A stretch of 44,026 nt of DNA, taken from contig MFQY01000053.1 in assembly GCA_001783185.1 (NCBI GenBank), forward strand, positions 1 through 44,026, in the 5' to 3' direction. Below the pieces are notes generated by a model, which saw nothing but the letters and a program-made list of their open reading frames with translations, made no database searches and was not told where the DNA came from. This document shows positions 5,001-41,536 of this stretch, piece by piece (position 1 is the first letter of the stretch; each line of letters begins with the position of its first letter). Source of the stretch: Candidatus Magasanikbacteria bacterium RIFOXYC2_FULL_40_16 (lineage in GTDB: Bacteria; Patescibacteriota; Patescibacteriia; Magasanikbacterales; UBA922). A program made the position numbers and the translations under genes.

Positions 5001-5030
5001 CCAGCCTACGGCTGGTCCGCCTTTGGCGGA
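5001..5030. repeat. double-hairpin element CCAGCC-nnnn-GGCTGG-TCCGCC-nnnn-GGCGGA, copy 1
   Basis: Read directly in the ssb leader region. The stems are identical to the copies at 20657-20686 and 30971-31000; the loops differ. Confidence 0.85.
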
Positions 5031-15681: not shown

Positions 15682-15764
15682 TCACCCTCCCGACTTAGTC
15701 GGGATGCTCCCAAATGCTGAGCCGAAAGCGAAGTCCCGATCTCACATCGGGAAGCTAGTGGCCC
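15682..15764 (-). pseudogene. degenerate tRNA-Ala-like remnant interrupted by TCCCGA..TCGGGA hairpins
   Basis: Minus strand: GGGCCACTAGCT-[TCCCGATGTGAGATCGGGA..]-CTCAGCATTTGGGAGCA-[TCCCGACTAAGTCGGGA]-GGGTG.. The acceptor and D-arm are recognisable, the anticodon arm is replaced by a hairpin and the T-arm has decayed. Confidence 0.6.
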
Positions 15765-18843: not shown

Positions 18844-21000
18844 TTATCCGCGTTTTACGAATGCTAAAACCACTGCGCCGAGTTTTTTTATAAATCTCAC
18901 CACAAAAAATCCGCGCGCTTTAACAGACAAACCGATTAAAATTGAAGTTAGCCCACCGGCGGTGGCGATCAAGTATTTTTCCGCCGTGTCTGTTTGACTG
19001 GCTTCTGCCACAGCCTCGCCCTCGCCGGCCGTATTTAACAATTCAATATCCTCGCTGGAACGAGGAAGCAACTGATAACCAGCCGACCTCTCAATTAAAA
19101 TCCCTTTAACAGCGATCCTGTCCCCTGTTTCAAAAGAACTGCTGTCTATATTTGCGTTTTCCTTGAAAGAAACTTTGATTTCCTCGGCGCCGTCATCCAA
19201 ATAAATATATGAACTTTTCTTTTCCGTCACTTCGCCCTCAATCCGCAAAAAACTCCCCTCATATTTTTCATCTATCTCGCTTATTTTCAATGCAATAACT
19301 TCCGGCTCGCTTTTGCCGACGACTTTAATATCTTCTTTGTTCTTTATCTTTATTCTGGTCTCGCCATAGGCCTCGGATATTTCCCCGGCGACTTCAACTT
19401 CATCGCCGATTGCCAACTCCGGAAAATCTTTGCTATACATATATATCTGCGCTCCGCCGTCTTGGTTGGAAATATAAAAATACTGCGTGCCAAAAACCCC
19501 CGGCAACACCGTCACCACTCCTTTTGTTTTTACTCTGGAACCAACGGCGCGGTCGCGAAGTTCAGCCAATCCGGTTTCAACTGTCGCGCTGTATTTTACG
19601 CCGGCAACCGCGGTCAACGCCGGAGCGGAAAAACTGTTTTTTGCCCCCGGAGTAATTTTCGTCGTCCACGTCCATTGATTGGAATCATTTCTGGCAAAAC
19701 CTGCCCCCTCCGTCACGCTTGAATAATCTATTTCATCTATTATGGCGTTATCACCGGCTAACAATCTGGCCGAATCCATATCATTATTAAGGGCAATTTT
19801 TGTTTCCCATTTTCCAAAAACCAAATACTCCCCCGCTTTTATAATTGTATCCTTCGGAAATTTATACGGACTGGAACCACCATCCTCGTCATCCAGCTTT
19901 AAGCCATACAAATTAAAATCTTCTTCCGTCGGATTATATAATTCTATCATCTCCGTGGTGTCCGAACCGGCCGGATTGGGCAAAATTTCTGTGATAATAA
20001 TTTTTACATCCCCAATTTTAACCAACTCTTTCACTTCGCTTTCCACGACAACTTTTTTCGTGCTGGTTGAAATTAAAAAAGCGGTTGTCGTCGTTTGATT
20101 ATTTTGAGTTTTACTTTCCGACACGCCAATTTCACCCTCAACATAAATAACGTTCGGCTTGCCTTTGGTAATTTCCTGCGTGAGAGCAAAATCAACATCA
20201 TCTTTATCAGTATCCTGTCCGTCGTAAACTCTCGCCGTCGCGAGCGGATCGTCCGCTTTTGGCGCGTTGTCATTTTTATTGCCGTCGTCCCAATTGCCGT
20301 AAGACATTTGGTCTATCAGCCCGCCCGCCGGGTCAAACAACTTAATTATATCGCCCGTGTTATTCAAATTCCCTTTTGGTTTTTCCAAAACAAAAAAACC
20401 GTTCGCCAAAGTTGTTCCGCCCAAAATGCTTTTACGCACGGAGCCGTCTTCAATCCACCAACCGGACAAATCAATACTATATATAGTGGTATTATACAAT
20501 TCTAAAAACTCCACTTCGCCGTCAGCCGGGTCGCTGACGAATTCATTTATTACCACTGAACCAATATCATAACCCAATAATTCCGGCTCGCTTTGAATAA
20601 TTTCGATATTGTTTTGAACTGGCGGTGGTTCAGATTCTTGTTCATTGTTAATTGTTCCAGCCGAAGGCTGGTCCGCCTCTGGCGGAGATTGTTCATTGTC
20701 GCCTACTGTAATCAAATCTTTTAATCCATCAAAAGTAACCTGTCCGATGCCGGATACATCCATAATTTCTTCTATTGTTTCAAACGGACCATTCAGCTCG
20801 CGGTAATCAATAATCGCTTGGGCTTTTACCGCTCCAATCCCGGGCAGTAATAAATCCAGCGTTCCCACATCAGCTGTGTTAATGTTTATTTTAAGGGAAT
20901 CGTCAGCCAAAACATTTTGCATAAATAAAAAAATACCGCCTAAGATCATTAGCAATAAAAATAGTTTTTTCATATAAAAAAATAAATTAATTATGGACAT
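18844..21000 (-). CDS. ComEA-like HhH DNA-binding surface protein with two lamin-tail domains, an OB-fold and a C-terminal membrane anchor
   Basis: The signal peptide is followed by ININTADVGTLDLLLPGIGAVKAQAIIDYRELNGPFETIEEIMDVSGIG, a ComEA helix-hairpin-helix. The lamin-tail-like segments are VINEFVSDPADGEVEFLELYN and ITEILPNPAGSDTTEMIELYN. The probable start is the ATG at 20973 (MKKLFLLL). Confidence 0.7.
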   Translation of the reverse strand: MSIINLFFYMKKLFLLLMILGGIFLFMQNVLADDSLKININTADVGTLDLLLPGIGAVKAQAIIDYRELNGPFETIEEIMDVSGIGQVTFDGLKDLITVGDNEQSPPEADQPSAGTINNEQESEPPPVQNNIEIIQSEPELLGYDIGSVVINEFVSDPADGEVEFLELYNTTIYSIDLSGWWIEDGSVRKSILGGTTLANGFFVLEKPKGNLNNTGDIIKLFDPAGGLIDQMSYGNWDDGNKNDNAPKADDPLATARVYDGQDTDKDDVDFALTQEITKGKPNVIYVEGEIGVSESKTQNNQTTTTAFLISTSTKKVVVESEVKELVKIGDVKIIITEILPNPAGSDTTEMIELYNPTEEDFNLYGLKLDDEDGGSSPYKFPKDTIIKAGEYLVFGKWETKIALNNDMDSARLLAGDNAIIDEIDYSSVTEGAGFARNDSNQWTWTTKITPGAKNSFSAPALTAVAGVKYSATVETGLAELRDRAVGSRVKTKGVVTVLPGVFGTQYFYISNQDGGAQIYMYSKDFPELAIGDEVEVAGEISEAYGETRIKIKNKEDIKVVGKSEPEVIALKISEIDEKYEGSFLRIEGEVTEKKSSYIYLDDGAEEIKVSFKENANIDSSSFETGDRIAVKGILIERSAGYQLLPRSSEDIELLNTAGEGEAVAEASQTDTAEKYLIATAGGLTSILIGLSVKARGFFVVRFIKKLGAVVLAFVKRG
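20657..20686. repeat. double-hairpin element, copy 2, inside the ComEA-like CDS (encodes ..PPEADQPSAG..)
   Basis: Same stems as the copies at 5001 and 30971. On the coding strand it is flanked by the direct repeat ACAATGAACAA. The distance from repeat start to repeat start is 51 nt, so the reading frame is kept. Confidence 0.85.
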
Positions 21001-30970: not shown

Positions 30971-31000
30971 CCAGCCAGAGGCTGGTCCGCCTTTGGCGGA
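30971..31000. repeat. double-hairpin element, copy 3
   Basis: CCAGCCAGAGGCTGGTCCGCCTTTGGCGGA. Confidence 0.85.
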
Positions 31001-39198: not shown

Positions 39199-39247
39199 AC
39201 TGTAAGGGAACACTTACCCCGACCTTGCGTCGGGGAGCTACACTCCG
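39199..39247 (-). repeat. orphan tRNA-Pro 5' fragment (nt 1-12, CGGAGTGTAGCT) fused to the hairpin module CCCCGACGCAAGGTCGGGG-TAAGTGTTCCCTTAC-AGTT
   Basis: The 12 nt at 39236-39247 are identical to the 5' end of the intact tRNA-Pro about 115 nt downstream. Confidence 0.8.
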
Positions 39248-39261
39248 ATATAAAATTTTTG

Positions 39262-39942
39262 TTAAATCTGTTTTTTCAATCCGTCAATCCATCCAATTAA
39301 TTTATAAAAAAGTTTGGTGTTATATACTCTTAAATGGATAGTCCCGTATTTTAATATATTTTTACTTTTCCCCTTGCTCGCTGAACTTAAAGATCTCGAC
39401 ACTTTCATAAATTGATCTTTTTTTATTCCTGTCACTCTTGACCAATACTCTACAGCTTTATTACCAGATAAATTTCTATGTAAAATAACTTGTACTCTCA
39501 TTTTATCTTCTTCAACCTTACAAATCTCTCTAAAAAAACGCATCATCATCATAACCATAGTTGAATCAGAATTTGTAAAATCTACACACTTCCAAATACT
39601 TCCTTCCGCGCCTTTTTTATATCCCTCTCCCCAATATAATGAAATCCCCACAAGAAAAAGGTCATTTTCTCTTATTTTTTTTACCTCTTTAGCGGCCTTT
39701 TCACGTATTTCTTTTGCCCTCTCCTTGGCAAAAACTGTTTGTTCTTTGTTTCTACGAATTAATGCTTTCACACTTTTCTCATATACCCTATTTTCTATTC
39801 TAGTTTTCGCTTTTTTTGACAAAACTATATCTCTCAACCAATAAGAAAGTGTGCTTTTGGGGATTTTTAACGATTTACTTATTTCATTATAACTTTTCCC
39901 CAACTTGCGAAGTTTTATCGCATTTATTTTTTCTACCTTCAT
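39262..39942 (-). CDS. HTH plus single-motif LAGLIDADG-like homing-endonuclease-like protein (free-standing)
   Basis: N-terminal HTH (KSYNEISKSLKIPKSTLSYWL). DLFLVGISLYWGEGYK resembles the LAGLIDADG (L..G....GEG) motif. The size and the basic C-terminus fit the family. This is a motif-level call only. Confidence 0.45.
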   Translation of the reverse strand: MKVEKINAIKLRKLGKSYNEISKSLKIPKSTLSYWLRDIVLSKKAKTRIENRVYEKSVKALIRRNKEQTVFAKERAKEIREKAAKEVKKIRENDLFLVGISLYWGEGYKKGAEGSIWKCVDFTNSDSTMVMMMMRFFREICKVEEDKMRVQVILHRNLSGNKAVEYWSRVTGIKKDQFMKVSRSLSSASKGKSKNILKYGTIHLRVYNTKLFYKLIGWIDGLKKQI

Positions 39943-40004
39943 ATAAATTGAACTTACGGTAATTAGACATACAAATTATACCGTAAGTTCAAAATATATA
40001 CAAG

Positions 40005-40306
40005 TGCCGAGGGCGAGGATTGAACTCGCGACACGTGGATTTTCCAATTTATTATCTTGTGTTTCCACAAGGATCGGACTATATCATCACCCCGACTCAG
40101 TCGGGGGTTGGGCGCTAATGCGAGATTATTGTTGGGGCTCACTCGCTAGTCTCTACACCTTCCCCGATACTTTTACCCATCGGGGCTTGGCTCGGGATTA
40201 TCCGCTAGTCGACGGACTTCCCCGAATTCACCCAATTTTCTCATCTTAATTTACATTAAGAGGGACCGAAATTCAGTCCACTGCTCTACCACTGAGCTAC
40301 CTCGGC
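40005..40306 (-). tRNA. tRNA-Phe(GAA) interrupted by a group I intron (exons 40275-40306 and 40005-40044)
   Basis: Exon 1: GCCGAGG TA GCTC AGTGGTA GAGC A GTGGA CT. Exon 2: GAAAA TCCAC GTGTC GCGAG TTCAATC CTCGC CCTCGGC A. Joined, they give a canonical 72-nt tRNA-Phe. Confidence 0.85.
40045..40274 (-). ncRNA. group I intron (IC3-like), 230 nt, inserted between U33 and G34
   Basis: The 5' exon ends in U, which pairs as U-G in a P1 helix (GGACU with GGUCC at intron nt 8-12). The intron ends in G. The core strings AAUCCCGAGCCAAGCC.. and ..GGAAGGUGUAGAGACUAGCGAGUGAGCCCC.. and ..AUAGUCC.. resemble the cyanobacterial tRNA-Leu intron core (recalled from memory). Confidence 0.8.
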
Positions 40307-40340: not shown

Positions 40341-40416
40341 TGGTGGACCCTACCGGATTTGAACCGGTCACCTCTTCCATGCCATGGAAGCATTCTACCA
40401 AATGAACTAAGGGCCC
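40341..40416 (-). tRNA. tRNA-Ala(GGC), CCA encoded
   Basis: GGGCCCT TA GTTC ATTTGGTA GAAT G CTTCC ATGGCAT GGAAG AGGTG ACCGG TTCAAAT CCGGT AGGGTCC A CCA, with G3:U70. Confidence 0.9.
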
Positions 40417-40419
40417 GTC

Positions 40420-40683
40420 TTATTTTAATTTAATAATTTTATTTTCAATAATATCTTCTATAATATCTCGTCTTTTTAATTTTTTAATCTTATATTCAAT
40501 GCATCTAGCCTGTTTTATATCATTATAAATTTGAAAAAATTTTAATTCCCATTTACCCTTATTTTTTGTCGCGATATTTTTACCGGAATTATGTTCAGCC
40601 ATTCTTCGATCTAAATCAATCGTTGACCCTATATAATACTTGCCCGCTAATTCGCTATATATAATATACAGATAACCTACCAT
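40420..40683 (-). CDS. small GIY-YIG nuclease-family protein (87 aa)
   Basis: MVGYLYIIYSELAGKYYIGSTIDLDRRMAEHNSG...; paralogue of the N-terminal domain of 2349-3137. Its stop codon lies 3 nt from the tRNA-Ala 5' end. The start is taken at 40683; the longer ORF reads into the pseudo-tRNA. Confidence 0.75.
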   Translation of the reverse strand: MVGYLYIIYSELAGKYYIGSTIDLDRRMAEHNSGKNIATKNKGKWELKFFQIYNDIKQARCIEYKIKKLKRRDIIEDIIENKIIKLK

Positions 40684-40694
40684 AATATTATTTA

Positions 40695-40784
40695 CCAGCC
40701 ACCTTCCCGATGTGGCATCGGGACGTTCTACCAAATGCTTTTAGTCCCGATGAGCCAAAGGCGACATCGGGAAACTAAGGGCCC
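40695..40784 (-). pseudogene. decayed tRNA-Ala(GGC)-like copy carrying two TCCCGATG..CATCGGGA hairpins, truncated in the T-loop by the GIY-YIG gene
   Basis: Minus strand: GGGCCCTTAGTT-[TCCCGATGTCGCCTTTGGCTCATCGGGACTAAAAG]-CATTTGGTAGAAC-G-[TCCCGATGCCACATCGGGA]-AGGTGGCTGGTAAAT.. The intact gene reads GGGCCCTTAGTTCATTTGGTAGAATG[anticodon arm]AGGTGACCGGTTCAAAT. Confidence 0.7.
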
Positions 40785-41481: not shown

Positions 41482-41508
41482 CCAAAACCCAAACAAGAAA
41501 GTCTCCCG

Positions 41509-41536
41509 CCCCCGACTAAGTCGGGGGCTTTGTTTT
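41509..41536 (+). terminator. intrinsic terminator
   Basis: CCCCCGAC-TAA-GTCGGGGG followed by CTTTGTTTT. Confidence 0.75.

Follow-up and report, generated by a model that had tools for sequence, protein, structure and literature searches.

The tRNA-Phe(GAA) gene of Candidatus Magasanikbacteria bacterium RIFOXYC2_FULL_40_16, a member of the Candidate Phyla Radiation (CPR), is interrupted in its anticodon loop by an insert of 230 nucleotides (nt). The gene is located on the minus strand of contig MFQY01000053.1 (assembly GCA_001783185.1), which we analyzed over positions 1 to 44,026 (44,026 nt, the whole stretch being termed the window herein), and it reads, from 40306 to 40005, GCCGAGGUAGCUCAGUGGUAGAGCAGUGGACU, followed by the insert and then by GAAAAUCCACGUGUCGCGAGUUCAAUCCUCGCCCUCGGCA. 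Comparison of sequences and predicted structures makes it very probable that the gene is split between U33 and G34 by a functional, IC3-like group I ribozyme that contains no open reading frame (ORF). The split itself is confirmed: the joined exons give a canonical 72-nt tRNA-Phe(GAA) in ARAGORN, as the original prediction had proposed, and the unspliced gene is reported by the same program, used with its intron option, as tRNA-Phe(gaa) i(34,230). The CCA end is not encoded. Both ARAGORN with default settings and the tRNA model of Rfam miss the split gene.

The Rfam family of group I introns (RF00028, Intron_gpI), which the original prediction had named as a check, matches positions 40283 to 40055 of the minus strand over the whole model (1 to 253) with 93 bits and an E value of 8.8e-23, compared to a gathering threshold of 50 bits. 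A thermodynamic fold, computed with no knowledge of group I introns built in, has a free energy of −77.3 kcal/mol (z = −3.95; none of 200 shuffled sequences was as good), and the minimum free energy (MFE) fold of the intron recovers P2, P3, P4, P5, P6a, P8, and P9. An intron-encoded endonuclease ORF was not found; each of the six frames contains stops, and no reading frame is of useful length. Together with the covariation among 16 homologues described below, the Rfam match and the fold bear out the assignment of the insert to the group I introns, and the data support a bona fide ORF-less intron at position 33/34 of tRNA-Phe(GAA).

Table 1. Positions of the split tRNA-Phe gene, the parts of its intron, and neighboring features in the window
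Feature	Position	Strand	Description
tRNA-Phe exon 1	40275-40306	-	5' strand of acceptor stem, D arm, 5' strand of anticodon stem, C32, U33 (ARAGORN, sequence)
Group I intron	40045-40274	-	230 nt, ORF-less (Rfam RF00028, covariation, fold, stops in all frames)
P1	40263-40279	-	exon GGACU (40279-40275) with intron GGUCC (40267-40263); U33·G marks the 5' splice site; loop holds the P10 guide
P10 guide UUUC	40268-40271	-	complementary to GAAA at 40044-40041 (first four bases of exon 2, i.e., anticodon plus A37); invariant, 16/16
P2 hairpin	40244-40261	-	GUAA (GNRA) tetraloop; compensatory changes in 6/7 pairs
P3, 5' strand UUGGGUG	40229-40235	-	partner 40114-40108; compensatory changes in 4/7 pairs, 100% paired
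P4-P5-P6/P6a domain	40157-40225	-	compensatory changes in three pairs of P4 and 7/7 of P6a; AA of J4/5 and J5/4 invariant
P4	40225-40220/40197-40192	-	UCGGGG/UCCCGA
P5	40217-40213/40204-40200	-	short
P6	40191-40189/40159-40157	-	
P6a	40185-40179/40168-40162	-	
P7, 5' strand GACUA	40147-40151	-	follows the invariant J6/7 GUAGA; partner 40081-40077 (UAGUC); invariant, 16/16; identity of region 0.98
Extra hairpin between P7 and P3'	40120-40146	-	stem GCGAG/CUCGC, conserved loop UGAGCCCCAACAAUAAU; 4/5 stem pairs covary
P3, 3' strand CGCCCAA	40108-40114	-	alignment
P8 hairpin CCCCGAC-UGA-GUCGGGG	40090-40106	-	Rfam alignment, MFE fold; length varies among homologues
P7, 3' strand UAGUC	40077-40081	-	follows the conserved J8/7; invariant
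P9 hairpin	40056-40071	-	GAAA tetraloop; compensatory changes in 6/6 pairs
Terminal (omega) G	40045	-	G precedes exon 2 in all homologues
tRNA-Phe exon 2	40005-40044	-	anticodon GAA, A37, A38, 3' strand of anticodon stem, variable loop, T arm, 3' strand of acceptor stem, A73
tRNA-Ala(GGC)	40341-40416	-	34 nt upstream of tRNA-Phe, probable cotranscription (ARAGORN, Rfam)
GIY-YIG gene	40420-40734	-	104 amino acids (aa), stand-alone; Pfam PF01541, 1e-16; ends 3 nt before tRNA-Ala
Conserved 14-bp hairpin	39948-39992	-	between tRNA-Phe and the helix-turn-helix (HTH) ORF, abuts the start codon of the latter
HTH protein gene	39262-39942	-	226 aa; 62 nt downstream of tRNA-Phe

The elements of the ribozyme are listed in Table 1. 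The GGACU/GGUCC pairing of P1 with its U33·G pair, the terminal G, and the lack of an ORF are all as originally predicted. P7 is presumed to be the guanosine-binding helix, and P10, in which the intron pairs with exon 2, is unable to covary because the exon is fixed.

Homologues were collected with a pattern scan for split tRNA-Phe genes, using one genome per species, and the loci discussed herein are given L-numbers. At least 21 loci carry the same split tRNA-Phe (L009 and L077 representing one piece of DNA); with a looser initial pattern, ordinary tRNA-Lys genes made up most of the 120 listed matches. Eight further split tRNA-Phe genes were met in a search with a neighboring gene, so that at least about 29 other genomes or contigs have the same split gene, and the rarity that the original prediction had attached to a tRNA-Phe intron was overstated. 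Most of the loci are labeled Moranbacteria/Moraniibacteriota, Magasanikbacteria, Parcubacteria, or "Patescibacteria group"; the labels Giovannonibacteria and Saccharibacteria also occur. A few of the metagenome-assembled genomes (MAGs) with a split tRNA-Phe are labeled Gammaproteobacteria or Bdellovibrionales; these labels are unreliable, since L009 ("Bdellovibrionales") is 100% identical to L077 ("Parcubacteria group bacterium") over 5,864 nt. Several binchicken MAGs with such labels have tRNA cluster synteny of the CPR type, and their labels look wrong. Rfam called the intron in 15 of 18, 3 of 4, and 2 of 3 of the loci tested, with scores of 61 to 97 bits. In L010, from a MAG labeled Saccharibacteria, the intron is shorter (197 nt) and lacks the P9 hairpin, and the anticodon stem contains a U-U mismatch; the score is nevertheless 71.5 bits. 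Phage and plasmid collections gave only three weak 60-nt matches, all in Pseudoalteromonas phages, and none in plasmids.

An alignment of 16 sequences provided the covariation data. The proposed structure is paired in 94.5% of the cells, in comparison to 48% when the partners are slid by one column, and compensatory double changes occur in 44 of the 81 pairs; none of 500 shuffles reached the observed values. P1 shows one compensatory change from A-U to G-C, and its U·G pair is kept in all 16 sequences. No variation is seen in P7 or in the junctions J4/5, J6/7, and J8/7, the GAAA tetraloop of P9 is found in 15 of the 16 (GUAA in L071), and compensatory changes across species likewise occur in the exons, in their acceptor and T stems. 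Column identity amounts to 0.88 to 0.94 in the exons, 0.90 to 0.98 in the catalytic core, and 0.58 to 0.66 in the peripheral helices, a conservation profile that is, judged from the alignment, the signature of a ribozyme under selection.

The exact boundary needs some consideration, because GAA stands at the start of both the intron and exon 2, which makes the boundary formally ambiguous by 1 to 3 nt from the sequence alone. The site was assigned to 33/34 because only this position yields a 5' splice-site U plus a terminal G. If splicing took place at 34/35 instead, after G34, a terminal G would also be left, as both the intron and exon 2 start with G, and the ARAGORN notation indeed alternates between i(33) and i(34) among homologues. 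Group I 5' splice sites follow the U of a U·G wobble, however, and it is the pair of U33 with the first G of GGUCC that is kept throughout the alignment. In L071, the intron begins with A and exon 2 with GAAGA, so that the boundary is not ambiguous there and G34 can come only from exon 2. Pairing of UUUC with GAAA in P10 also requires that exon 2 starts at G34. We therefore regard a 34/35 site as very unlikely, and the insertion between positions 33 and 34, which had been proposed at the outset, is borne out by the P1 U·G pair, the terminal G, and L071.

The source being a MAG, an assembly or chimera artefact has to be considered. The 302-nt pre-tRNA is the same in six independent assemblies, which include strain variants with different neighboring proteins, and counterparts of the window are found as MAG contigs of GCA_001784365.1 and GCA_001783095.1, as well as in groundwater and soil metagenomes. 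Identical sequence is present in NCBI, ENA, and JGI assemblies of different samples, and 11 sequencing runs (X1 to X11) contain the locus with at least 90% of the sampled words. The probability that the insert is artefactual is, in our view, close to nil.

An uninterrupted tRNA-Phe gene was found neither within the 44-kb window nor in 19 related loci (∼150 kb in total), and run X1, a metagenome containing this organism, has no contig in which similar exons are joined directly. Run X16 includes a contig from another community member that joins exon-like halves and skips exactly the 230 nt, which is the empty-site form. The split gene keeps clade-specific tRNA clusters, namely, Leu-Val-Phe-(Met)-Gly, Ile-Met-Phe-Pro, or Ala-Phe. 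It also occupies the orthologous canonical locus, because the intron-less tRNA-Phe of L204 has the same place upstream of the conserved hairpin and HTH gene. According to PMC8172020, group I introns hide some CPR tRNAs from tRNA finders, and the tRNA set of complete CPR genomes is full only if the intron-containing tRNAs are included. We infer that the split gene is the canonical and probably the sole tRNA-Phe gene of the organism. Within a large CPR clade, the intron appears to have been inherited vertically at this locus for a long time, and it would have been kept splicing competent because the tRNA-Phe gene is essential.

Based on these features, maturation might proceed as follows. The tRNA-Ala/tRNA-Phe cluster would be transcribed from the minus strand, and the intron would fold into P1 to P10, with P1 formed by the last five bases of exon 1 (G29 to U33) and the internal guide GGUCC. 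An exogenous guanosine bound in P7 would attack the phosphodiester after U33, the base in the U·G wobble, and next the UUUC guide would align exon 2 via GAAA, i.e., the anticodon plus A37, in P10. The terminal G (40045) would then take the binding site of the guanosine, the 3'-OH of U33 would attack, and the exons would be ligated, giving a junction of GGACU with GAAAAUCC. RNase P, 3' trimming, and CCA addition would complete the tRNA.

Some observations weigh against a splicing-competent intron in the only tRNA-Phe gene. The search for a second copy was limited to the window, related loci, and run X1, and five homologues (L001, L082, L094, L197, and L203) were not called by Rfam at the gathering threshold. 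P5 of the window intron (UCCG/CGGA) lacks the 11-nt GAAA receptor (CCUAAG...UAUGG) that is counted among the traits of IC3 introns, so that one of the tertiary contacts may differ or be weaker; the strict receptor motif is present in L009/L077 and L028, and about 9 of 19 homologues have receptor-like variants. Three anticodon-stem bases are tied up in P1, which makes a folding competition with the tRNA body possible. Finally, none of four metatranscriptome runs covers the locus, and we infer splicing from conservation. In one sludge metatranscriptome run, a related intron is represented by a contig of high depth that extends into both exons, which is uninformative on ligation. The receptor-less P5 and the extent of the second-copy search might also suggest a decaying pseudogene whose intron does not splice, with a functional tRNA-Phe encoded elsewhere. 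All junctions of the catalytic core are invariant and all helices are intact, however, and the compensatory changes in the exon stems, the identity of the locus in six assemblies, its orthology with the canonical tRNA-Phe position, and the lack of an intron-less copy of similar exons in X1 likewise speak against decay, which we consider extremely unlikely.

A further alternative is that splicing depends on a linked protein, or that the intron spreads with one, comparable to maturase-assisted splicing or to the "collaborative homing" of free-standing endonucleases. Two neighboring genes come into question, the 226-aa HTH gene downstream of tRNA-Phe and the GIY-YIG gene that adjoins the tRNA cluster upstream (Table 1). 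In all 18 close members of the HTH family that were examined, the gene lies 58 to 62 nt downstream of a split tRNA-Phe, in neighborhoods that are otherwise unrelated. The protein is predicted to consist of an N-terminal HTH, a long helix, and an α/β domain, the latter predicted with confidence (pLDDT 90) and containing invariant polar residues. The family (∼227 aa) comprises 5,608 representative clusters at an E value of ≤1e-3, and some members occur in two to three tandem copies. Several findings argue against a role in splicing or homing. Sequence profiles from Pfam, NCBIfam, PHROGs, and PDB detected only the HTH and no endonuclease or maturase, and Foldseek searches against PDB and BFVD returned nothing at an E value of ≤1e-3 and no LAGLIDADG protein among the top 50. 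Eight loci with split tRNA-Phe have no HTH ORF nearby, including L043, which is a close relative of loci that have it. In L204, a distant HTH relative follows an uninterrupted tRNA-Phe with the same hairpin, so that the module of hairpin and HTH gene is linked with the tRNA-Phe gene rather than with the intron. A LAGLIDADG-like endonuclease or maturase had been considered because the 226-aa ORF contains the motifs F-L-x-G-x-S-L-Y-W-A-E-G-Y-K and I-G-W-I-D-G; this candidacy was rejected in view of the profiles, the fold, and L204. The GIY-YIG gene was likewise rejected as the endonuclease of the intron, since a homologue is found near only 1 of 21 split loci and the NCBIfam model "group I intron endonuclease" scores 24 bits, compared to a cutoff of 56 bits. 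Dependence on either protein is thus unlikely.

The hairpin between tRNA-Phe and the HTH gene has 12 to 19 bp in the relatives, with arms of about TTGAACCTAYGRTA and TAYCRTAGGTTCAA, a TGnTATAAT-like motif at the edge of the loop, and a T-run thereafter. It covaries in 11 of 16 pairs, with G·U wobbles in addition. The module of hairpin and HTH gene was studied in the window and in L025, L041, L048, L068, L079, L082, L090, and L196 to L204. The GIY-YIG protein has 87 aa in some strain variants, and in L203 and L204 a small GIY-YIG gene is found after the HTH gene.

The attribution of the intron to subgroup IC3 is plausible. It is compact, with a GNRA loop on P2 (L2 GUAA), GAAA in L9, a simple P5, and no P5abc. 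IC3 introns are described as having no helix between P7 and P3', whereas here J7/3 contains a conserved, covarying hairpin of ∼27 to 30 nt with the near-invariant loop GUGAGYCCCAACAAUAA, at the topological position of P7.1 in IA introns; L017 and L071 have a different, two-hairpin insert at this position. A scan of metagenomes for P7 and this loop, independent of exons, revealed 72 intron copies on 69 contigs (L127 to L195), none of them in tRNA-Phe. The majority (39 of 72) are inserted in high-GC tRNA(CAU) genes at 36/37, 2 lie in tRNA-Leu(UAA), where the site appears to be 33/34 (L174 and L190), and ∼31 have no tRNA exons nearby, some of these with flanking ORFs. Rfam confirms representatives of these groups. 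Given the copies in other host genes, the tRNA-Phe intron is part of a broad lineage that changed host genes. In L163, L180, and L185, two intron copies each are found ∼0.9 kb apart, adjoining ORFs.

Other tRNA genes with inserts of ∼185 to 220 nt were seen in L007, L040, and L072, and these inserts have group-I-like core strings (e.g., GGUGUAGAGACU in L007 and L040). The contigs are labeled Patescibacteria, Gemmatimonadaceae, and Bradyrhizobiaceae, and the host tRNA might be Asn, Lys, or Thr. We did not retain them as further split tRNAs, as Rfam does not call them at the gathering threshold and their cores are group-I-like by eye only.

The classical sites of group I introns in bacterial tRNAs are 34/35 in tRNA-Leu(UAA) and 36/37 in tRNAs with CAU and CCU anticodons, and the introns of tRNA-Leu(UAA) are ORF-less, long vertically inherited, and self-splicing. 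Like these, the window intron is ORF-less and located in a bacterial tRNA anticodon loop, but it lies at 33/34 and not after U34 (34/35), and its host tRNA and site match none of the classical introns (Leu-UAA, CAU, CCU). The tRNA-Leu(UAA) copies of its own lineage (L174 and L190) also appear to be split at 33/34 and not at 34/35. Alignment with the presumed sequence of the Azoarcus tRNA-Ile intron gave a score of 46 in comparison to 20 ± 3.8 for shuffles, with the strings AAUUCGGxGAA, CCGAGCCAAGC, and GAAGGUGUAGAGACUAG being the same in both, which is only a lead.

The closest known counterpart in architecture would be the IC3 intron in tRNA-Ile(CAU) of Azoarcus sp. BH72, crystal structures of which are cited in PMC3984707. 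Both are small ORF-less ribozymes (∼200 to 230 nt) in the anticodon loop of a bacterial tRNA, with a GNRA loop on P2, GAAA in L9, and no P5abc. The window intron differs in its host, tRNA-Phe, in the extra conserved hairpin of ∼27 nt between P7 and P3', in the lack of the 11-nt receptor in P5, and in its site, 33/34 instead of 36/37. As a consequence of this site, P1 is built on C32-U33 and the anticodon stem, and it is the anticodon itself that is paired in P10. Relatives with the extra hairpin in tRNA(CAU) share the 36/37 site of the Azoarcus intron. The intron of Agrobacterium tRNA-Arg(CCU), which PMC4090602 cites together with other proteobacterial tRNA introns from Reinhold-Hurek and Shub (1992), is similarly inserted after a U in the anticodon loop, but in a different tRNA and after the third anticodon base. 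That bacterial tRNAs may carry group I introns in the anticodon loop is known (PMC3984707, PMC4090602), and PMC12641178 and PMC8172020 record group I introns in rRNA and tRNA genes of CPR bacteria/Patescibacteria. Those in CPR rRNA genes often encode LAGLIDADG endonucleases, unlike the window intron with its lack of an ORF.

The original prediction had also linked two hairpins of the intron to a family of CCCCGA..TCGGGG hairpins in the window. The motif is indeed enriched, with four occurrences compared to 0.01 expected; a shared origin found no evidence. Two of the copies are the intron helices P8 (40090 to 40106, which had been called peripheral and is a core helix) and P6a (40162 to 40185), whose sequences vary freely among homologues while the pairing is kept, and the other two (39217 and 41510) are located directly downstream of ORFs and resemble terminators. 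In view of the free sequence variation and the terminator-like placement, a link of P8 and P6a to a common hairpin family was rejected. GC-rich hairpins of the type CCC(C)GAC-loop-GTCGGG(G) are found at 15689 to 15703, 39217 to 39235, and 41508 to 41528, next to tRNA-Ala and downstream of two ORFs. A T-tail is present at 41508, and this hairpin is scored as an intrinsic terminator; the resemblance of these hairpins to P8 is only superficial. A tandem double hairpin, CCAGCC-NNN-GGCTGG plus TCCGCC-TNTG-GCGGA, occurs in three copies (5001 to 5030, 20657 to 20686, and 30971 to 31000) with identical stems and varying loops, one of them between tRNA-Gly and tRNA-Met, and it matches no Rfam family at the gathering threshold.

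The literature that we searched contained no description of tRNA-Phe as a host or of the 33/34 site. A preprint by Nakagawa et al. (2025; 10.1101/2025.07.03.662931) on CPR tRNA introns announces "a novel insertion site" and may describe exactly this one. The mechanism is a textbook one and group I introns in CPR tRNAs are already on record, so that the novelty is modest. If the site of the preprint is a different one, U33, being available in every tRNA, would constitute a new class of positions for tRNA introns. Only tentatively would we propose that the 33/34 intron is ancient and that its removal is an obligatory, so far undescribed step in the maturation of tRNA-Phe throughout a major CPR clade (Moranbacteria, Magasanikbacteria, and other Parcubacteria). 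It would then belong to a broad, IC3-derived lineage, characterized by the P7-P3' hairpin as a new conserved domain, that was retargeted via changes in P1 and P10 to tRNA-Phe 33/34, tRNA-Leu(UAA) 33/34, tRNA(CAU) 36/37, and protein-coding genes. This retargeted lineage is the most interesting thread of the finding: with its extra hairpin and several host genes, it provides a compact natural set of retargeted ribozymes that should be useful for studies of insertion-site change. The main practical value lies in annotation. Since standard tRNA finders miss the gene, genomes of the clade appear to be without tRNA-Phe, and recognizing the intron corrects estimates of completeness and inferences on codon usage for CPR genomes. 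For these minimal-genome organisms, the sequences suggest that an essential tRNA would depend on a ribozyme that reads the anticodon via P10 and cuts at the universally conserved U33.

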